Source of the DNA: a phage
DNA: 64,000 nucleotides
Sequence record: PZ445442.1
Direction: 5' to 3' (one strand)
Shown: positions 15,282-61,047 of the stretch, piece after piece
Layout of the letters: each line of letters opens with the position of its first letter
Numbering within the stretch: the stretch's first letter is position 1
The notes under the pieces: generated by a model
Seen by the model: only the letters and a program-made list of their open reading frames with translations
Told to the model about the DNA's origin: nothing
The model's database searches: none
Position numbers and translations under genes: made by a program

Positions 15282-15746
15282 TCAGTCCTCGCATTTAACA
15301 AATTTTTCTACAGATCCACCAAGCACAGCTTGTTGTTTGATGGCACTTACTTCATCATAGTGGATAGACTTATGTTCCGTACCTCCGAACTTACCTGTGT
15401 GGAAGGTGTGCACCCAAATCTCTTTAGGAAGGGATTTATTCTCTTCCTCCACCAACTCCCACATACCCCACAAGTGATCTGTGATATCTCTGATGAAATA
15501 TCCCTCGCCGAGGTTTGTATTCACACTGTAAGCTGATTCGTGATCTCCGCAAATATAACGGAAGGCAGTGTACTCTTTACCTGGTGTGAAGTGAGTATCC
15601 ATTAGTATGGCTGTTAAAGAATAAGGGTCTCGAAAGCCCAAGAACTTTAGTTTAACAATTTCGACATTTACATCTGCAAGATTATCCATGACGATCTCCT
15701 CTGTTTGGTTGGTGAGAATTATATATAGATCTGGTGGTGGTGTCAA
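15282..15746 (-). CDS. hypothetical protein (weak phosphoesterase-like GDHE motif)
   Basis: 154-aa ORF; only a GDHE and a later His-rich patch, so function is unassigned. Confidence 0.4.
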   Translation of the reverse strand: MTPPPDLYIILTNQTEEIVMDNLADVNVEIVKLKFLGFRDPYSLTAILMDTHFTPGKEYTAFRYICGDHESAYSVNTNLGEGYFIRDITDHLWGMWELVEEENKSLPKEIWVHTFHTGKFGGTEHKSIHYDEVSAIKQQAVLGGSVEKFVKCED

Positions 15747-18534: not shown

Positions 18535-18771
18535 TTAATCTTCGTAAATCAGGATTTCTGCTTTAGGTTTTCGTGCTTTCATGTCCAGCTCTATCCAGTG
18601 CACCATAGCTGTTTCAAGAAAAACAGCCTGGATGCATCCGTCCTCAGCAGCGTGTCCTAGCAGCATAACAAGATCTTCTCCTTCGTCATCTGCATCACGA
18701 ACATACAGAATCTCCCCGGGTTCAAAATCTTTAACAACCTGATTGTTGGATAATTTACGAATTTTCGCCAT
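18535..18771 (-). CDS. small protein, member of tandem paralog family A
   Basis: 78 aa; shares the PGE/GTVV...hydrophobic core...E.D pattern with the three upstream 87-aa paralogs. Confidence 0.45.
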   Translation of the reverse strand: MAKIRKLSNNQVVKDFEPGEILYVRDADDEGEDLVMLLGHAAEDGCIQAVFLETAMVHWIELDMKARKPKAEILIYED

Positions 18772-18772
18772 A

Positions 18773-19036
18773 TCAGAAACCCTCTAAAAAGCTCTTGTAG
18801 AAAACAATCTCAGTATCCACACCAGTCACAATCTTGTCGTTCCTGATTTCATCGGTAAGATAGGTGTCAAAACGCAGAACCTGTGTGGTGTTGTCACACA
18901 TCCACTCAGCTGTGACCATTGCGAAAATCTTAGCATCTTCATTATCTGGTGTGAATGTTACCACCTCACCGCACTTAAACTTTTCGATAGGCTGAGTGTT
19001 AGCTTTCGGTTCTGCGATAGTGATTTTTGTGGTCAT
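18773..19036 (-). CDS. small protein, tandem paralog family A
   Basis: 87 aa; CGEVVTF...VTGVDTEIVF resembles neighbours. Confidence 0.5.
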   Translation of the reverse strand: MTTKITIAEPKANTQPIEKFKCGEVVTFTPDNEDAKIFAMVTAEWMCDNTTQVLRFDTYLTDEIRNDKIVTGVDTEIVFYKSFLEGF

Positions 19037-19299
19037 TATTCTCCTCCTTCTTTTGAATAGCTTGTCTCTCCAAGGATGGTAATTTTGGTGTCAAGCTCTG
19101 TAACTTTCATGTTTGGCGGCAGATCGTACAACTCATTATTTTCTAAATCGAACCCCCACACACAATGTTCTCCTGTTTTGACAATCATAACTATGTTTTG
19201 AATGCCGTCTCCGTCGCAACTTACCACGGTCCCACACGGAAAACTGTCTGCACGCTTTTTGTTCTTCACCTTAGAATTGAATACAATGCTGGTAGCCAT
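19036..19299 (-). CDS. small protein, tandem paralog family A
   Basis: 87 aa; PCGTVVSC...VTELDTKITILGE resembles neighbours. Confidence 0.5.
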   Translation of the reverse strand: MATSIVFNSKVKNKKRADSFPCGTVVSCDGDGIQNIVMIVKTGEHCVWGFDLENNELYDLPPNMKVTELDTKITILGETSYSKEGGE

Positions 19300-19562
19300 T
19301 ATTGTTCCTCCACCATAACTTCGCCAAGAATTTCTATGCAGGCATCCATTTCTGTAACAACCAAACTGTGAGGCAGTTCTACAAACACCTTTCTGAACAG
19401 GTCAAATACCCCAACATATATGTTTGCAGGATGTGATTTTACAACAAGTGCTGTATTCACATCCCCAAGTTCATCAACAAACATCACCACAGTGCCTGGA
19501 GCTACTGAGGACAGATACTTCTTAGTTTTACGGTTTGATGCAAATTTTAACTCTGTTGCCAT
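19299..19562 (-). CDS. small protein, tandem paralog family A
   Basis: 87 aa; APGTVVMF...VTEMDACIEILGE resembles neighbours; start and stop overlap neighbours. Confidence 0.5.
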   Translation of the reverse strand: MATELKFASNRKTKKYLSSVAPGTVVMFVDELGDVNTALVVKSHPANIYVGVFDLFRKVFVELPHSLVVTEMDACIEILGEVMVEEQ

Positions 19563-37930: not shown

Positions 37931-40321
37931 ATGAGTATGTGGTCGTTCGATTTTGAGTCATCCGGTTTGCTGGAAGACCCAGATCTTTATTATCACTGCG
38001 GTCTGTTTAAAGAGCTGAATAAGAACCGTTTTATGCTGTTCCTTCCTCTAAATGACCGCACACACTACTCCGAGGAGGATATAGAAAAGGCTAAGAACTT
38101 CATTCTGGCAAAGAAAACTCTTTATAAAGATTTTGAAGTTCGCATAGCAGATTTTTCGGAGTTGGAAGGTTGGCTTACAGGCAATTCTGACTGGTCACCA
38201 ACAGCTTTGAACTGCCATAACTGCTACAGTTATGACTTTATGCTGATGGAAAGATTATCCGGTATTCATTTTGATATGTTCCGTGATCCTAAATGCATGG
38301 GGACTATCAACGATCACCAGGTTAACCTGTTTGATACGTTGGCGATGAGCCGAATCTTGTGGCCTGATCGCCCTTTACCAAAAGGTTGTCCGGACTCTGT
38401 ATTCAACCCGGTTACTAAGAAAATGCAGCCTGTTGGTCCCCACGGCCTTATGGCATGGGGCTACGCCCTTGGTAACCAGAAAGTTCAAATTGATGACTGG
38501 CGCGATCTTCCGTTGTGGAAGTATGTGGATCGTGTATTCGAGGACGTTATCATCCAGGAGCTGCTCTGGAAAGAGCTGGTAGCGGAATCAAAAGGTGTAT
38601 TCTACGGCAAATCTGACATGCAGAACTTTATGTACGATCCTGCCAAAGAGAAGCCGAAAGGGTTCAAGAAGATCACCTGGAAGAACGCATTACGCCGAGG
38701 CATGCTGCAGCACTTCCTGATGGAGCTGCAGGCCCGTCAGGGTGTGTATTTTGACATAGATGGAGCTATTGCTTTACGTGACCGTTGCGATGCGTGGATG
38801 AAAGAAATCGCTGATCGTGTTGAACCACAACTACCTTTAAAAGAGTTGTCAATGTCTCAGCGGCCCAAGTTCCCTGAAAAGCCGTTTAACCAAGATGGGA
38901 CAATCTCCAATAATGGTTGGAAATGGTTAAAAGATAAGCTTGGCTATCCTGTAGATATGAGCGCTTTAGAGTTCAAAGCCCCGCCTAAGCGAGCATTTAC
39001 CTCCACAGGGGATGTCAGCAAGATGGGGATAAAATGGTGTGAAGAGATGGGCTGCAAAGACCCTGATAAGATGGCTGATTTCTTGAGAGGCTATATTAAG
39101 GGCACTTCCACACCACAACCTTTACCTAAAGAGCTGATGGATCAGGCAATAAGTGATCTGCAGCAGAAGCGAATGCCTGACTGCAAGATACCTATGAAAA
39201 TCAGCAATCAGGACGACATTAAGCGGTATCTGATCAGTGCTGGCTGGCTCCCGACGATGTGGAGAACTAAGGATGTAACTAAAGACAGCAAGAAGAAAGC
39301 CCTACCTGATGCAGATGTTGATGCACGAGTATATGCATATATGGACGAGCTTTTAGAGTCAGAGTATTGTGATCTGATTATCAACTTCTGGAACAAAACT
39401 GATGCTAAGTTCCAGACAACCGTGCACAAGTTCCGAAGCTTTCCTAACTCCGAAAGGATTAAAAAGGAAGTATTCGGGAAAATACGTAGAAAAGCTAGGG
39501 CACTTATTACTTCTCCGCAACTGAAAGATACGTTTGGACACCTATGCCCGAATCTTGAAAAATTGAACGGAGAGATGGCTAAAGATATCGTCTTGTGGTT
39601 ATCTTTGCGAAACCGCAGATCGGTACTTGATCCAATCAAGGAGGATAAGGTTGATACTGGTCTTCTTAATCACCCACGTTTGAAGATTGACCATAAGCTT
39701 CCTGCTAAAAGCTCTGGATTAACAAACACTTCCAGACAGAAACACAGTATTTGTGCAAACATGCCTAAACCATCTCCTAAAGTGGTCATGGGTAAAGAGA
39801 TGCGTAGTCTGTGGGGTGTTCCTCCAGGATACTTTGAGATCGGTATTGACGGGTCCAACTTAGAGCAGCTTATCGGGGCTTGGGGTGCCTTTGAGTTCGA
39901 CAACGGATTGTATTATGATGTTGTAAGTAACGGGGACGCACACCAAAACAATGCTGAAGCATATACAAAAGTGGCAGGCAGAGAGGTGTCTCGTAACGAC
40001 GGTAAACCTATCACGTATGGGGTTATGTATGGGGCACAAAAAGATAAAGTTGCAGATATGCTGGACATCTCTCCAGAACTGGGGCAGAGAGTAATTGATG
40101 CTCTCTGGGATGCCAACCCAGGTCTTAAGGGGCGCAAAGAGGATCTGGAGAAATTCTGGGAAGCAACAGGTAAGAAATTTATCTACTCTTTTGACGGGCA
40201 TGCCATTTGGACCCGCTCTAAACACTCTTTGCTTAATGCATATCAGCAAAATGGCGGTGCATCGTTGTGCGACTTGGTCGGAATCCTCATGCACCACCAA
40301 ATGGTGAAGCGTGGATGGTAT
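37931..40321 (+). CDS. family A DNA polymerase, exon 1 (3'-5' exo + polymerase motifs A and B)
   Basis: Exo I FDFESSGL; motif A GIDGSNLEQLIGAW; motif B KPITYGVMYGAQ; track ORF runs 12 codons further into the intron to a stop at 40360. Confidence 0.65.
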
Positions 40322-41196
40322 GATGAAGGTGTTCGTCGTATTATTTATTACCATAAATAACATTGTGGCTTCGTGCAGTGATGCACGTCGAAAACCTCTT
40401 TAATTGACGGGAAGGCTAAGTTGACTTTTACACCTAAACATGGTAAAAGCTCAATATGCTAATCCGCAGCGAAGACTAAAGGGGTGTAGTTAAAATGGCT
40501 AGATCAGTTGATTATCACGGATATACCGTGTTTGATGATGGAACAATACCTTTATCGAAACGTGATCATACAACAATGTTCTGTTTTGATAATGGTCGAG
40601 GTTACCTTTGCGTAACCATGTTCATCGAGGGGAAGCAGTGCACAAAAGGTGTCCACCACTTGGTTGCTGAATGCTTTGTATCAAACCCTGATCCTGAAAG
40701 GCTCACATGGGTGAACCATAAGGACGGAAACAAATACAACAATGCATACTGGAACCTTGAATGGACCACCCCTGGTGGAAATATCAAACACGCTTATGAT
40801 AATGACCTCAGAGTAAGGCCAGTCGGTGAGTATAATGCCAACGCTGTACTGACCGAGGATGAGGTAACGGAGATTTGCGAACTGTTACAAAGTGGTTTAC
40901 GACAATGCGAGATTAGGGATCTTGGGTATCCTTATGAGACGGTCAGAGCCATAAAGCAAAGAAGACAGTGGAAACATATCTCTAAAAACTACACCTGGTA
41001 GTAACGTTCAGAGACTATCGAAAGCATAGCGCCAACATAAATTGGTGCGAAGAAGCGAGTAGAGTAGGCCAGCAAGTGCGGTCGAAATGGGAGGTGCCTT
41101 GGTAACAAGGTAGTGAGATAGTCCGATCCATACAGGAAACTGTATGGCTGTGCACGTAATGGTGCGGGGTAGCTTAACGACCTACCTGAACTATTG
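40322..41196 (+). mobile_element. group I intron with HNH homing endonuclease ORF, inside the DNA polymerase gene
   Basis: Elements matching the conserved P (AATTGACGGGAA, 40402-40413), Q (AATCCGCAGC, 40461-40470), R (GTTCAGAGACTATC, 41006-41019) and S (GAGATAGTCC, 41115-41124) sequences; P9-like hairpin CCATACAG-GAAA-CTGTATGG (41128-41147); U at -1 (40321) and terminal G (41196); boundaries inferred. Confidence 0.6.
40495..41001 (+). CDS. intron-encoded HNH homing endonuclease
   Basis: 168 aa; HNH region GVHHLVAECFVSNPDPERLTWVNHKDGNKYNNAYWNLEW; lies between intron Q and R elements. Confidence 0.65.
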   Translation: MARSVDYHGYTVFDDGTIPLSKRDHTTMFCFDNGRGYLCVTMFIEGKQCTKGVHHLVAECFVSNPDPERLTWVNHKDGNKYNNAYWNLEWTTPGGNIKHAYDNDLRVRPVGEYNANAVLTEDEVTEICELLQSGLRQCEIRDLGYPYETVRAIKQRRQWKHISKNYTW

Positions 41197-41550
41197 GATG
41201 AGTACCAACTTCAAGTGCCTGACACACCTAAGTATAAAACCGTATACACCTTCGACACAATTGAAGAGCTGGAAACATTTAAGGCCAAGCAGGAGGCTAA
41301 ACTTCATGTGTTCGACGGTCATAAGTACAAAAAGGCACGCAAGGATGAGGATGGAAACGAAGTGGTTGACAAGGACGGAAATACGGTGTACGATCCTATC
41401 CTGAACGATGACGGAAAGCTTGAACTTATCTGGAGCCCTGTGGGTGAAATGGTGGTGCATTGCTTCTGGCAAGCTTCTAAAATGATGGGAGTCCCGTTCC
41501 AGATCACAGGTGAATACTTGTGTGGTCGTAATTGGGGTGATTGTCACTAA
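41197..41550 (+). CDS. family A DNA polymerase, exon 2 (C-terminal region)
   Basis: Begins DEYQLQV, which joined to exon 1 gives GWY|DEYQLQV (motif C-like); ends GRNWGDCH with terminal His, as I recall for T7 gp5 and E. coli Pol I. Confidence 0.55.
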   Translation, partial: DEYQLQVPDTPKYKTVYTFDTIEELETFKAKQEAKLHVFDGHKYKKARKDEDGNEVVDKDGNTVYDPILNDDGKLELIWSPVGEMVVHCFWQASKMMGVPFQITGEYLCGRNWGDCH

Positions 41551-41599: not shown

Positions 41600-41884
41600 A
41601 TGGTAGTAGAACCAACAAAAACATTTACATCCATGACTATCCCTGTTATTATGCAGGTGGAGTGTGTTCAGGTATCTCAAGTGTGGCCTGGCACCAAAAT
41701 CCCAACAGGGCCTGATTTCTTTCAGGTTGGGAAAGTGTACAATGTCTGGAAGGCACCAGATTGTTACCCTTTCATTAAAGATGACCGTGGGATGCTGTGG
41801 TACCTTGGAAATGACTTGACACTGCACCTTGGGAATACTATTATTGCAGTATTCAGACTTAACAAGAAGGAGACCGATCAATGA
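41600..41884 (+). CDS. small protein, tandem paralog family B
   Basis: 94 aa from ATG 41600 (RBS AGAGGAG); shares GK.Y.V......D..G..W core with neighbours. Confidence 0.4.
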   Translation: MVVEPTKTFTSMTIPVIMQVECVQVSQVWPGTKIPTGPDFFQVGKVYNVWKAPDCYPFIKDDRGMLWYLGNDLTLHLGNTIIAVFRLNKKETDQ

Positions 41885-42108
41885 CGACTTTGGTTAAAGC
41901 TACCTTTGTAGAAGAAAAGATGACAGACCTGTCATTCTTTAAAGAAGGAAAGACCTACGAGGTTTATTACGATAAAGCTCGTGCAAACAAAATGATTAAA
42001 GACGAGGAAGGGGTTGCCTGGTATATCTCTCACCTGGCAAACGGTGAGTATCATATCTACGGAACCACTTTGCTTGCCAAGTTTGTAGTTGTTGAAGAGG
42101 ACCTATGA
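41881..42108 (+). CDS. small protein, tandem paralog family B
   Basis: 75 aa; GKTYEVYYDK..DEEGVAWYISHLANGEYHIYG. Confidence 0.45.
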   Translation: MTTLVKATFVEEKMTDLSFFKEGKTYEVYYDKARANKMIKDEEGVAWYISHLANGEYHIYGTTLLAKFVVVEEDL

Positions 42109-42299
42109 AAGTAAAGTATCTTGCTGAAGGTATGAATAGGTATTTTACCCTTGGTGAAGAATATTGGCCCTTTACAAACAACGGCGATGTCTACGTGAAA
42201 GATAATTTCGGCACGCCGTGGTTTCTGCACTCTAATGGGCTGGGATACTCCATTTACTGCGGTGCAGTGAACAACACAACTCTTGCAGAGTTCGTTTAG
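42105..42299 (+). CDS. small protein, tandem paralog family B
   Basis: 64 aa; GEEYWPFTNNGDVYVKDNFGTPWFLHSNG. Confidence 0.45.
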   Translation: MKVKYLAEGMNRYFTLGEEYWPFTNNGDVYVKDNFGTPWFLHSNGLGYSIYCGAVNNTTLAEFV

Positions 42300-42309
42300 A
42301 GGAGGTAGG

Positions 42310-42681
42310 ATGTTAGTAAAAGGTACCCACACAGTCAAACAACGTATTGAAGTTGAGATTGATGATTGTGAGCTGAAGCATATTTTACGGTCATGCTCCA
42401 ACGTTTTGCTCCTTAGTATTCTTCAGGAGCGAGCGGAGAAAGAGTTCTTAAATGCATTGGCAGGCCGTCCCGGTGACTTCTGTGTGCGTAAGCGTGGTGA
42501 CAACAAGTCGTGGTTGTGGGAGATCGATGCCGACTGGGATTACCACAAAAATGAGGGTATAGATGAGCCTATTCGTGAACTGACGGACAAAGAGATTCAG
42601 ATGTACAATGAAGTTTGTCATTGGGCAACACGCCAACAAATTTACCTAGACCCTGTGTGGCTGATTGAAAATAGTCGTTGA
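42310..42681 (+). CDS. hypothetical protein
   Basis: 123 aa from ATG 42310 (RBS GAGGAGG). Confidence 0.45.
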   Translation: MLVKGTHTVKQRIEVEIDDCELKHILRSCSNVLLLSILQERAEKEFLNALAGRPGDFCVRKRGDNKSWLWEIDADWDYHKNEGIDEPIRELTDKEIQMYNEVCHWATRQQIYLDPVWLIENSR

Positions 42682-42757
42682 CAAGAAGTAAGGCTAGATG
42701 TAAGATACTCCCCACAAACAGAGTATTGATTGTTAAATAATTAAGGAGACCTCTAAG

Positions 42758-43012
42758 ATGAAAATCATGTTGAAACCAGAATGCGTTGCAAACGACCGAG
42801 CTTTTAAAGATTGCACACTTGGCGCTACTTATGAAGCAGAGTTTTGTGAGAACCCTTTGGTAAAAGCCCTTTTGGAAGAAGGGGCCCCTCTATCACAAGA
42901 AGAGCTTGATGAGCTGGAAAACTCAGCACAGTGCCTTACCTTTAAAGATGATGAAGGAGACTCTGTCTGGTGCACTGTTAATGAAGTAGTTTTTGTAAAA
43001 CCTGAACATTAA
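42758..43012 (+). CDS. small protein (paralog of 43076..43336)
   Basis: 84 aa; DRAFKDCTLGATYEA..DDEGDSVWCTVNEVVFV; RBS AAGGAGA. Confidence 0.45.
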   Translation: MKIMLKPECVANDRAFKDCTLGATYEAEFCENPLVKALLEEGAPLSQEELDELENSAQCLTFKDDEGDSVWCTVNEVVFVKPEH

Positions 43013-43075
43013 TACTTGACAACAGTGATGGGGCCTAATATAATGGCCCTATCAAAACGAAAGGGGACCACAGCA

Positions 43076-43336
43076 ATGACCAAACAATATCAACGAATTA
43101 AAGCCAAGGTTAAGCCAGACTATCTGGAGAAAGACTCTGCTTTTCGGGACTGCACAGCCGACAAAGTTTACACAGGGGCTGTCCTGTTGAACGATAAACT
43201 TGAAGTAGATGTGCTGGGTAAAGAGGCCGTTATCGAGGATGACAACGGTGACTGTGTTTTCTGCACCACACGAGAGCTAGAAGTCTTAGAATATTTCGGT
43301 GAAATCTTCAACTCCTTAGACGACGAGGAAGCGTGA
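43076..43336 (+). CDS. small protein (paralog of 42758..43012)
   Basis: 86 aa from ATG 43076; DSAFRDCTADKVYTGA..DDNGDCVFCTTRELEVL. Confidence 0.45.
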   Translation: MTKQYQRIKAKVKPDYLEKDSAFRDCTADKVYTGAVLLNDKLEVDVLGKEAVIEDDNGDCVFCTTRELEVLEYFGEIFNSLDDEEA

Positions 43337-43725
43337 TGAAAAATATTTGGGATATCGATATCTTTGAAGCCTCTAAGCTTGACGGTGCTGATGGAGTGAT
43401 TATGGTGTCTGATGGCAAGGCAACACTAACTTCCGGAGATATCATCTATGCCTTGGACGAGCTGGCGCTTCTGAAATCTACCGGTAACACTTTGGAGGAG
43501 CGTCTTCAAGGATTCTCTTTCAAAGAAGGTACAAATACAGCCATGATGTGCACCACACGGACAGTTCAGGTTGGTAACGGTGTCTATATGATTATTGCTG
43601 TGTGTCCTAAATTCAGCAACGTCAACAAAGATGATGCTGACGCGGTCAACGATGTGGTTGTTCTCTTCGTGGGTGACGCTATGGCAGATCTGATGAATGC
43701 AGGAGAAGCAGCAAATGAAGACTGA
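43333..43725 (+). CDS. hypothetical protein
   Basis: 130-aa ORF, ATGA overlap. Confidence 0.45.
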   Translation: MMKNIWDIDIFEASKLDGADGVIMVSDGKATLTSGDIIYALDELALLKSTGNTLEERLQGFSFKEGTNTAMMCTTRTVQVGNGVYMIIAVCPKFSNVNKDDADAVNDVVVLFVGDAMADLMNAGEAANED

Positions 43726-44017
43726 AAACATCACCCCAGCAGGGTTCTTAAAAGTATACCGTGAACTGCTATATACTACAGAGGACAGTGTTCTAGAGTA
43801 TCCAGAATATCTTTTGCTGTATAAGTATCTGCAGGAGGCTGGTGAAAATCTGCCAGTTAGTGCAGAAGGTGGTCCAAACTGGATATACAGCGCATGGAGA
43901 AAGGTTGACATTCTCCCAGACCCAGGTAAAGATATGGTAGTTTGGCAGCTTATCAACAACATCGGGATTCCAATCTTTGATGAAGCTGTTAAAATCTATT
44001 TTGAACTTGACGATTAA
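43715..44017 (+). CDS. hypothetical protein
   Basis: 100 aa from ATG 43715 (RBS AGGAGA); the track ORF starts 18 nt earlier. Confidence 0.4.
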   Translation: MKTENITPAGFLKVYRELLYTTEDSVLEYPEYLLLYKYLQEAGENLPVSAEGGPNWIYSAWRKVDILPDPGKDMVVWQLINNIGIPIFDEAVKIYFELDD

Positions 44018-44034
44018 TATCAGGAGACCTTAAG

Positions 44035-44280
44035 ATGACTGAAGCAGTTGCTCGCGCAGGACAGAAAGTACGTTGTGTTGAAGTAGGTTTTGGTGGCAAA
44101 GGGTGTCAAAACTTGACTCAAGGTAAGGAATACGCTGTTATCTCTGGGGGTGGAGACGAAAGTATTGTGTTCGAGGGCCACATCCTGGGTGCTGAAAACT
44201 TTGAAATCTTTGACGACGATGGGGACCCGATCACCTGCCTGCTGGACGGGAATTGGGGAACTTTCGAAGTGATTGGCTAA
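44035..44280 (+). CDS. small protein, family B-like
   Basis: 81 aa; QGKEYAVISGGGDESIVFEGHILG; RBS AGGAGA. Confidence 0.45.
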   Translation: MTEAVARAGQKVRCVEVGFGGKGCQNLTQGKEYAVISGGGDESIVFEGHILGAENFEIFDDDGDPITCLLDGNWGTFEVIG

Positions 44281-44363
44281 CAAATACCTATTGTAATTTA
44301 CAGAAGGGGATGCTAAAATAGTGTCTCCTTCTATGTTGTTCAAATAAAATCGGAGATTCCATA

Positions 44364-44729
44364 ATGGAACAAATGAACGATCAAGCGTCGGTTGCGATGA
44401 ACGAGCAAGAACAACCTCAAGAATTTTTCTTAGGGTTAAGTAAAGATCAAGTGTCTCTTCTGCTAGTGCTTTCTTCTTTCATGGGAAGACTTCAGGAGCT
44501 TACACAACAGCCAGAGGCTGAACAATTATTCCAGGCTCTGCGTGAAGAAGAAAAATATCGTCGTTTGGACTATGCCTTAGGTTGGGTAGCTCAACAACGA
44601 GATATGCTGATGGCCCTCTCTGGGACCACAAGTTTTGCAATGGGCCTGTTGGCTCAAGTTCAGGACAAATTAATTCAAGCAGGGTTTGCACACACGGCAA
44701 ACACTAACGAAGAACAAGGAGATAAATAA
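44364..44729 (+). CDS. hypothetical protein
   Basis: 121-aa ORF, RBS GGAGA. Confidence 0.45.
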   Translation: MEQMNDQASVAMNEQEQPQEFFLGLSKDQVSLLLVLSSFMGRLQELTQQPEAEQLFQALREEEKYRRLDYALGWVAQQRDMLMALSGTTSFAMGLLAQVQDKLIQAGFAHTANTNEEQGDK

Positions 44730-46000
44730 TGAGCGTTATTCAACAATTCGCTAACCCGATGAATCCGCGTGAAACTGTTTTACTAGCTCACGGCATGATT
44801 AAACGTGTCAGCATCAAGCCTATCAAAGGTGCTGATCCTACAACAGGTATTAAAACCACTGTGTGGCAAGGTAAGAAAATTGAATCCAGCCACACCATCT
44901 CTTTACTGATTTCTGAACTGGATTCCTCTGATAACCTACTTCAAGGTGGTGAAGAAGTTTGGATCAGTATGGGCGATAAGCTGCTTAAACCAGGTCATCA
45001 AGACTCTGTCTCTGTTAAAATTGATGACAAGTGGGAAACCGTAACGCCAGGATGGATCGTAAATATCCCTTTGAAGGCAAACGAGCATAACGGTAAGACC
45101 TACTACAAAGGCTCACTGGCTAAGATGGTTAAGCTGGGTGCAGGAGAGGCTCCAGCAGCGACTCAGCAGCAAAAACAGCAACAAGGTGCACAATCACAAG
45201 GCCAGAAGCAGAAACCTCAGCAGAATGCCAATCAGGGCGTTTTACGCATCTATGGTGATGTGACTCAGATTGTTGGCAACGTGGTTACTGTTAATGACCA
45301 CAAGATTGGCGAAGGTGCTATGGTTGTAACTGATGAGCAGCTTAAAGACCTAGTGGTAGGTGGTCGTGTTGCAGCCATTGTTGACAAAGACACCGGAAAC
45401 ATTATCAGTGGTTTCAAGGCCTATCCTCCTAAGGCAGAGAACGGTACTCAAGGCTCCGGTGGCAAGCGTAAATCCTCTTACGACCCTATTGGTGTGGAGA
45501 CGGGGCATAGCATCAATGCGTTGCAGATCATCCTGGATCGCGGGTTTAAGGTGGACGACCCACTAGGTGTGGCTAAAACACTGCACGTAGTCACCATTGA
45601 GCTTAAGAAAGAGTATGCTCAAGCCACCAACCGAACTGAAGATGAAGTAGGTGCCAGTGTCGGTAATGCGGTGTTGAACGCTTGTCGCCGTATTGACAAG
45701 AAAACGAAAGTTGATGATTTTGCAGCGGCAATTACTGCAGAAGCAAAAGATGTCTTGACTAATCTGGCTGAGCCGTTGTACGATTGGATCAAGAACGGTG
45801 CTGAGTCCACTGACCATCAAGAACCTCAAGCTGCCAAACAGGAAGCCGCTCCACAGCAAAACACTGTAGACGCACCTCCTGTAAATGATGAGGAAGATGA
45901 CCCGATGGGTCAGAATCCGGCGCAGTATGACTTCTGTGATGACATACCTTTCGCTCCGGTAGGTTTGCAATATGGCAAAAGTAGAATCCACGCATTGTAA
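44729..46000 (+). CDS. putative ssDNA-binding protein (SSB-like acidic tail with DDIPF)
   Basis: 423 aa; Gln-rich linker and acidic C-terminal region ending ..[22 protein letters not shown] plus a 17-aa extension that overlaps the next gene. Confidence 0.45.
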
Positions 46001-46595
46001 GAGGTGCATCAAGTGCGGAGAGGTGAAAGACATCTCCGAGTTCTACAAACACCCAAAGATGTCTGACGGTCATCTTAATAAGTGCAAAGAGTGTTGCAAG
46101 AAGGCCAGCAGGGAGGCTGACCAATTTTCCCACGACTCTTCAGAAAAAGGTGTAATACGCGTGCTGTACAAGGCTCAAAAGTGCAACAGCAAGCAAAGAG
46201 GTCACCCGCCTCCGACTTACACCAAAAAAGAGTTTAAGGAGTGGCTATACCTAAACGGTTACAAAGAGTTGTATGATCAGTGGGTAGCCAGCGGATACGA
46301 CAAAAGGAAAAAGCCTTCTTGTGACAGGATAGATGATTTCAAAGGGTACTCTTTTGATAATATCCGTTTAACGACTTGGGGAGAAAATAAAGACAAGCAG
46401 ACAGAGGATATTCTGTTGCATAGAAGCACCAGCGGTAGACGGTGTAAAAATGTAAGGAGGCTGGACATGAATGGCAACGTTCTTAAAGAATGGGTATCCC
46501 ACAATTCTTGTAGAAGAGAAACCGGAATATGTGTTGATTACTACATTCATGAAAAAATTCCAGCCCCAGATGGATACCTCTACGAATACTTTTAG
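45972..46595 (+). CDS. HNH-type homing endonuclease with N-terminal zinc finger
   Basis: 207 aa; CKRCIKCG...CKECCKK zinc-finger-like; [23 protein letters not shown] nuclease motif; overlaps the 3' end of the SSB-like gene. Confidence 0.5.
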
Positions 46596-60828: not shown

Positions 60829-61047
60829 ATGACAACCCGTAAAATTAAAGTTGTTTGCATTGAATCGACTGGGGGCGCTTTTGTAGTTGGTCAGGAATAT
60901 AATGCGGTTTTAATGGGTACGGATTGGAAGGTTAAAGGCCTTAATGGTTACGAGTACGGCACTACTTGCGGCTTGCGTGGTCGAATCGGATACGTGAGTT
61001 TAGACAACAAAGAAAAATTTGTTTTCGACACCGTTGTGAGTAAATAG
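60829..61047 (+). CDS. hypothetical early protein
   Basis: 72-aa ORF, RBS AAAGAGAGAAAG. Confidence 0.45.
   Translation: MTTRKIKVVCIESTGGAFVVGQEYNAVLMGTDWKVKGLNGYEYGTTCGLRGRIGYVSLDNKEKFVFDTVVSK

Follow-up and report, generated by a model that had tools for sequence, protein, structure and literature searches.

Does the run of small genes behind the DNA polymerase gene of the phage sequenced as PZ445442.1 derive from a single ancestral gene, and what might its products do? The window analyzed here (the whole stretch of 64,000 nucleotides (nt), one strand) carries these genes at positions 41,600 to 44,280, where a first-pass annotation made from the letters alone had described one expanded family of small proteins. 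The array lies in the replication module, with the DNA polymerase on one side and an SSB-like gene on the other, and its 2.9-kb region is 100% identical to that of Escherichia phage EmilHeitz (Bas49, MZ501062.1), an rV5-like Vequintavirus. GenBank lists nine "hypothetical protein" genes between the polymerase and bas49_0088; we label them g79 to g87 after their locus-tag numbers from bas49_0079 onward, and their rV5 counterparts run from gp219 to gp211. On balance, we favor an account in which six of these genes arose by lineage-specific tandem duplication of standalone SH3-like barrel proteins of 64-94 amino acids (aa), fall into three subfamilies within the replication module, are probably transcribed by host RNA polymerase and would act in accessory binding. 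The earlier description is thus partly supported: it was right in outline and is refined by the three subfamilies, by the unrelated genes interspersed among them and by the SH3-like fold.

Sequence relationships and predicted fold

By sequence, the six genes group into three subfamilies, and all nine genes of the array lie on the + strand. The first subfamily comprises g79 (bas49_0079, rV5 gp219; 41600..41884, 94 aa), an annotated coding sequence with a good Shine-Dalgarno sequence and an additional N-terminal segment of ~35 aa; g80 (bas49_0080, gp218; 41881..42108, 75 aa), also an annotated coding sequence; and g81 (bas49_0081, gp217; 42105..42299, 64 aa). The second contains g83 (gp215; 42758..43012, 84 aa, isoelectric point (pI) 4.2) and g84 (gp214; 43076..43336, 86 aa, pI 4.3). 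The third is represented by g87 (gp211; 44035..44280, 81 aa, pI 4.2), which belongs to a wider phage family of ~70-100 aa proteins. The six genes named by the first-pass annotation and the peptides it quoted are all present at these positions, but they are not consecutive as it had stated, being interrupted by g82 (gp216; 42310..42681, 123 aa), g85 (gp213; 43336..43725, 129 aa) and g86 (gp212; 43715..44017, 100 aa). These three are unrelated to the family: g82 reaches at most 0.4% in hhalign against every family profile and g86 at most 0.6%, the latter matching Pfam DUF7238 instead (E 5.5e-7, 30.2 bits, cutoff 27). We also considered g85 as a seventh member on the strength of a 19-bit blastp match to g83, and rejected it, as hhalign gave at most 2.4% (for the shallow g83-g85 pairing) and at most 0.3% with deeper profiles.

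Within the first two subfamilies, relatedness is evident from pairwise comparison. In a small-set blastp analysis, g83 and g84 align with 37 bits, g79 and g80 with 28.9 bits, and g80 and g81 with 21.9 bits. The corresponding hhalign values for shallow orthologue profiles are 94%, 87% and 54%, with all other pairs below 7%, so that the description of the genes at 42758 and 43076 as clear paralogues holds. Hidden Markov models (HMMs) of single genes, run against the 867 six-frame open reading frames (ORFs) of the window, recovered the same within-subgroup links at E values from 2e-7 to 2e-3, specifically 3e-5 to 2e-3 within g79-81 (0.0022 for g81) and 1e-6 to 2e-7 for g83/g84. In PHROGs the six genes are assigned to six separate families, with cross-hits inside each subgroup.

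Links between the subfamilies emerged with deeper profiles, to which sister-clade sequences were added. The g87 family matches the g79-81 profile at 91.0% in hhalign (E 1.1e-6, 56 columns covering strands 1 to 5; 91.7% in a local run), and the match of the g87 family to the g83/84 profile is weak (39%, E 3.2e-4). Control families built from g82, g85, g86 and g88 gave at most 0.4%, with E values of 0.29-0.92. For column-shuffled profiles, the null score was ~10 ± 2 and the highest values were 19 and 14; the real scores are 31 and 26. Moreover, an HMM from the g87 family alone ranked g84 first and g81 next after g87 itself among the window ORFs. At the level of sequence, g87 is the link joining the two other subfamilies, and the connection between g79-81 and g83/84 rests on transitivity via g87 and on agreement in predicted fold and motif positions. 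The core pattern that had been proposed for the family also exceeds chance: the regular expression [GD][KEA].Y.{8,50}D[DEN].G, composed post hoc, matches exactly the six genes among the 867 ORFs. Because significant profile-profile similarity among members was found, the notion of one expanded family survives in the form of a superfamily of three subfamilies, two of which (g79-81 and g83/84) give no signal when compared directly (0.3%).

With respect to structure, g87 and g84 are both predicted to be SH3-like five-stranded barrels. The AlphaFold2 model of g87 (38-sequence alignment; predicted local distance difference test score (pLDDT) 92.9, predicted TM-score (pTM) 0.81) has strands at residues 11-17, 32-37, 56-59, 65-68 and 75-79 and a short helix at 19-24. 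That of g84, built from a 28-sequence alignment of g83/84-type proteins only (pLDDT 81.7, pTM 0.68), has strands at 4-12, 31-38, 50-54, 60-64 and 68-78 and a helix at 14-19. The order of elements is identical, with the helix between strands 1 and 2 in each case, and the two models show the five strands, and the superposition on solved SH3, KOW or Tudor domains, expected of an SH3-like small beta-barrel. In both, the T-x-G/D-K-x-Y motif begins strand 2 (pattern h-T/F-x-G-K-x-Y-x-V) and the D-D-x-G-D motif forms the hairpin of strands 3 and 4 (pattern h-x-D-D-x-G-D-x-h-h). The loop between strands 2 and 3 is variable, from ~5 to 28 residues, and g83 carries a long insertion at this point. For g79-81, the same fold is suggested by the 91% profile match to the g87 family. 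We also weighed the D-D-x-G-D hairpin as a possible DxDxDG calcium-binding loop and rejected this reading, because the spacing is wrong for such a loop and the motif is absent from g79-81. Two cysteines are invariant in all g83/84-type proteins, one in a "DC" before strand 2 and the other as "x-C" where strand 4 ends; in the alignment they correspond to C24 and C68 of g87, which also has C14. Sister-clade g84 orthologues contain seven cysteines in 85 aa. The conserved g83/84 pair could represent a metal site or a structural pair.

Among predicted viral structures (BFVD), the g87 model matches dozens of uncharacterized phage proteins of 60-130 aa, one of which is a DUF7244 protein. Its Foldseek neighbors there include Erwinia phage Y2 gp12/gp14 and proteins of Escherichia phage ST32, Proteus phage Myduc and Pectobacterium phage PP101 (E 5e-5 to 1e-2, TM-score 0.6-0.76, identity 15-31%), and several phages give two hits each. 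A Pfam scan of the six family genes found nothing above threshold, and a sequence search of the PDB with the g87 family profile found nothing significant (best E 0.055). The array is a new, lineage-specific case of standalone SH3-like phage proteins of a kind already known.

Several observations weigh against a functional superfamily of common origin. The g83/84 genes are tied to the rest by the weak hhalign values given above (39% with the g87 family, 0.3% with g79-81). Structure models cover g87 and g84, such that the fold of g79-81 rests on the profile match, and the SH3-like barrel is very common, which means that a shared fold is no proof of common ancestry. In addition, single-gene disruptions are without phenotype in both hosts tested, which fits redundancy and equally fits a marginal role. 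A rival reading is an array of two or three unrelated families, with g79-81 and g87 in one and g83/84 in another; on this view any small SH3-like barrel would tend to have a G-K-x-Y strand and a D-D-x-G hairpin, and the likeness would partly be convergence. We regard this as unlikely, though it keeps some weight. The alignment of g87 with g83/84 runs colinearly through 45-69 columns, keeps three motifs and two cysteine positions in register and scores 25.9, against at most 14.4 for shuffled profiles. The four neighboring control families, the ranking of g84 directly after g87 by the g87-only HMM, the helix between strands 1 and 2 in both models and the adjacency of the genes within one array also speak against unrelated families. 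We retain a superfamily in which g83/84 would share ancestry with the other array genes.

Distribution, selection and promoters

The array was found in 116-118 Vequintavirus records, with the region 88-99% identical to ~116 other records of the genus and the six family genes intact in ~116 genomes. Relative to FV3-type genomes, the ratio of nonsynonymous to synonymous substitution rates (dN/dS) for the nine array genes is 0.01-0.22 at dS values of 0.2-0.8; per-gene values include 0.01 for g79, 0.12-0.14 for g81 and 0.08-0.09 for g83. The six genes are real and under purifying selection.

In terms of wider distribution, the g79-81 and g83/84 subgroups are restricted, by sequence searches, to Vequintavirus and an uncultured sister clade, whereas the g87 family has a scattered distribution among many phages. 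When the array and g80 were compared with 50,697 phage records by DNA and tblastn searches, no matches were found outside Vequintavirus, and for g80 and g87 word-indexed searches of 5.8 billion proteins gave nothing beyond orthologues at least 75% identical; those of g80 at that level were confined to Vequintavirus in the phage-record and word-indexed protein searches. Scans of IMG/VR with g83/84 and g79-81 alignments yielded two Vequintavirus-like contigs and nothing else. Per-gene HMMs applied to the regions downstream of the polymerase in ICP1 and in phages of Klebsiella, Cronobacter, Salmonella and Pectobacterium detected no family members, the sole orthologues being those of g82, g86 and g88. 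Indeed, g82 is kept in other Vequintavirinae genera, with orthologues in Seunavirus and Klebsiella phage at E 1e-15 to 1e-20. The g87 profile, by comparison, retrieved a dozen or so phage proteins, 69-102 aa in length, from 1.84 billion representative proteins, and a profile search of a larger protein collection enlarged the set to ~40. In other phages, g87-family genes sit within stretches of small genes of the early or replication region, close to primase/helicase, Ead/Ea22-type or NMN-transporter genes.

The sister clade is represented by contigs of 128-148 kb that carry 86-aa g87-type hits and on which the genes behind the polymerase come in the same order. Orthologue identities are 42% for g82, 53% for g83, 47% for g84, 38% for g87 and 61% for g88; g80 is 33% identical to a sister-clade gene, and g85 and g86 are also present. 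These phages have two g79-81-type genes rather than three. Moreover, one contig (logan:ERR5086527_5892; L024 2015-2307) is without a g84 orthologue, retaining the promoter that precedes this gene and ~55 nt downstream of it, followed by ~250 nt of unrelated, ORF-free sequence. Copy number differs between the sister clades, reflecting duplication and loss. The words "paralog" and "duplicat" do not occur in the rV5 genome paper, and the subject of the KpAvs2 paper is the terminase, not the g79-g87 region.

Two irregularities were seen among the records of the genus. The g79 orthologue of phage APECc02 (L006 601-918) has an internal insertion of ~11 aa that repeats the adjacent C-x-P-F-I-K, giving 105 aa compared with 94. 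Sixteen MG0656xx records labeled "Campylobacter phage" (host C. jejuni) are 95-97% identical to the E. coli rV5-like region, and contamination or mislabeling is likely.

The spacing of the genes bears on how they are expressed. A plausible Shine-Dalgarno sequence precedes every gene from g79 to g87. Translational coupling through overlaps of 1-4 nt, as claimed for the whole array, fits the junctions g79/g80 and g80/g81 (4 nt, ATGA) and that between the g84 stop and the g85 start (1 nt, TGATG), but not g85/g86, which overlap by 11 nt, or the intergenic gaps of 76 nt from g82 to g83 and 63 nt from g83 to g84. Each of these gaps is associated with a sigma-70 consensus promoter on the + strand. 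The first, upstream of g83 (42678..42706, TTGACA-N17-TAAGAT), corresponds to the site annotated as P220 in the rV5 record and is conserved in the genus. The second, upstream of g84 (43016..43044, TTGACA-N17-TATAAT), is a perfect consensus with 12 of 12 matches. It is kept in all Vequintavirus loci examined and, of the five sister-clade loci scanned, in four, among them the locus without g84. The conservation of these consensus promoters suggests that the array is transcribed by unmodified host RNA polymerase, probably with translational coupling of some of the genes.

The second promoter also bears on the start of g84. The ATG used by GenBank, at 43043, falls within the -10 box, which makes the start at 43076 the likelier one; this start had been given in the first-pass annotation, where it is preferable to that of GenBank, and has been chosen by several other annotators. 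On the 3' side of g87, a consensus scan identified a candidate terminator-like stem-loop (44302..44332, + strand) with a 14-pair stem and a weak T tail.

Possible functions of the array proteins

The label "unknown function" originally given to the array proteins is still correct, and proposals for their role draw on chemistry, context and genetics. The g83, g84 and g87 proteins have pI values of 4.2-4.3 and net charges of -9 to -12, g80 and g81 have a pI of 5, and g79 is near neutral. None of the six sequences contains an N-terminal hydrophobic segment, signal peptide or membrane segment. On the genetic side, a transposon-sequencing study of Bas54 (MaxBurger) found bas54_0077-0082 and bas54_0085 to be non-essential in K-12 (preprint 10.1101/2025.11.20.689424). 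The corresponding Bas54 region is 95% identical to the array at the DNA level, and the orthologues of all six family genes are among those classed as non-essential. In a clinical isolate, the six family genes were not conditionally essential, with log2 fold changes of -0.05 to +0.85 and adjusted p values of 0.9-1.0 (10.1101/2025.11.20.689424). In the same study, disruption of the g85 orthologue lowered fitness, and the polymerase and the g89 orthologue were essential. The relevant sheet in Extended Data Table 8 of that preprint is headed "K-12_vs_CFE303" but has "311" input files, its numbers are repeated further on, and the identity of the isolate is uncertain.

From these data we infer that the array proteins are probably accessory protein binders. 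They would be cytoplasmic, mostly acidic binding modules that engage proteins of the host or the phage during early infection, in host takeover, as a replication accessory or in counter-defense, and the paralogues would be partly redundant, having diversified through tandem duplication. A more specific version holds that they are diversifying acidic SH3-like decoys or inhibitors with one host target per paralogue, such as a defense sensor, RNA polymerase or a Rho/NusG-type partner, or a protein that interacts with SSB. Tandem duplication beside the polymerase gene would then be the source of new specificities, and redundancy would mask the phenotypes of single genes. We consider this version doubtful.

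Nucleic-acid binding is less probable again. The proteins would in this case resemble KOW, Tudor or OapB domains or the N-terminal domain of Hpy99I and serve in phage replication or transcription, for instance as a polymerase or SSB accessory. Their likeness to KOW domains (NusG/Spt5/RfaH) and Tudor-like domains (e.g., the UvrD1 C-terminal domain) is structural only, as a scan of ten proteins at E ≤ 1 found no KOW motif or Pfam KOW match, nor did Pfam return a Tudor hit. In contrast to those domains, the array proteins are standalone and strongly acidic; the loop joining strands 1 and 2 contains a short helix, and the one joining strands 2 and 3 is long and variable. The acidity of g83, g84 and g87, and to a lesser extent of g80 and g81, argues against binding to nucleic acid, as does the single dispensability of the family genes when set beside the essential polymerase and g89 orthologue. 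Eukaryotic SH3 peptide-binding domains are likewise remote, with identities of 2-18%, no Pfam SH3_1, SH3_2 or SH3_9 hit and no sign of a groove for proline peptides.

A role as SH3b-type auxiliaries that bind the cell wall or aid lysis is very improbable. Such a role has been proposed for DUF7244, a standalone SH3 protein that adjoins the lysis cassette of T1-like phages (Drexlerviridae) and is hypothesized to be a lysis-module auxiliary (PMC13164509). Like the array proteins, members of DUF7244 (Pfam PF23896, SH3 clan) are single-domain phage proteins of ~60-80 aa with an SH3-like barrel, and g87 has both a weak sequence hit to this family (E 0.02, 15.4 bits) and a DUF7244 protein among its BFVD neighbors. 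Nonetheless, the hit is below the 27-bit gathering threshold and recurs in just 5 of 16 g87-family members, and the other five genes have no hit at E ≤ 1, so the array genes are not members of DUF7244. The genetic setting also differs, DUF7244 being a single gene beside a lysis cassette and the array being multi-copy, tandem and located in the replication module, with no holin or endolysin genes adjacent. No SH3_3, SH3_5 or SH3b Pfam hits were obtained, and the absence of a signal peptide or membrane segment for reaching the periplasm, together with the acidity noted above, argues against a cell-wall role; the function of DUF7244 is itself hypothesis only.

Least probable of all is that the genes are decaying leftovers of duplication that serve no function (junk or selfish filler), an idea that would suit their single non-essentiality and the limitation of g79-81 and g83/84 to the genus and its sister clade, but that is largely refuted by purifying selection (dN/dS 0.01-0.22, with dS reaching 0.3-0.8), by six intact genes in ~116 genomes, by sister-clade orthologues kept at 33-53% identity and by good ribosome-binding sites and conserved promoters.

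Large lytic coliphages such as those of the rV5 group carry well over 100 genes of unassigned function. The present analysis places six hypothetical proteins, assigned to six PHROGs families, in one SH3-like superfamily with documented duplication and loss; this reduces the number of unassigned genes, and deletion of the whole set, rather than of single genes, becomes a concrete target. If the proteins do bind host factors or defense components, the array would illustrate how a minimal binding domain, duplicated in tandem, can give phages new specificities. For now, it is a tidy but ordinary case of accessory small-gene expansion.

Other relatives and neighboring genes

Outside the array, the window encodes a probable additional, distant member of the g87 family (15282..15746, - strand). 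The similarity lies in the N-terminal half of a ~135 aa protein (HFTPGKEYTAF ... HLWGMWELVEE; hhalign 82%, E 1e-5). A 72-aa ORF at 60829-61047 (+ strand), with KIKVVCIES..FVVGQEYNAV, is weakly similar to family strands 1 and 2 (hhalign 10-29%) and is a possible distant relative.

The genes that flank the array have features of their own. On the 5' side, the DNA polymerase gene (37931-41550, + strand) is split, the first part ending near 40357 and the second, which has a T7-polymerase-like C-terminus, at 41550. An HNH homing-endonuclease ORF (40495-41001) occupies the sequence between the parts, which GenBank represents as a two-piece join; the gene is uninterrupted in some relatives (Bas54, B9-1 and YN3). 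On the 3' side, a 423-aa protein (44729-46000, + strand) combines a Q/G-rich linker with an acidic, SSB-like tip, DFCDDIPF; the orthologue of this protein in Bas54 is essential. A further 16 residues extend beyond this tip, where a second HNH endonuclease ORF (45972-46595, + strand) overlaps the 3' end of the gene; the sister-clade counterpart terminates in ...DFEDVPF. In one sister-clade contig (logan:SRR32732856_5758; L026 5446-6261), an IS200/IS605-type pair, consisting of a Y1 transposase and an OrfB/TnpB-like gene, lies directly 3' of the SSB-like gene.

A separate group of four small genes, encoding 78, 87, 87 and 87 aa, is located at 18535-19562 on the - strand and is probably the "first array" of the first-pass annotation. 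Two of these (19036-19299 and 19299-19562) are paralogues with 39% identity (E 1e-11), and the remaining two (18535-18771 and 18773-19036) are weakly similar.

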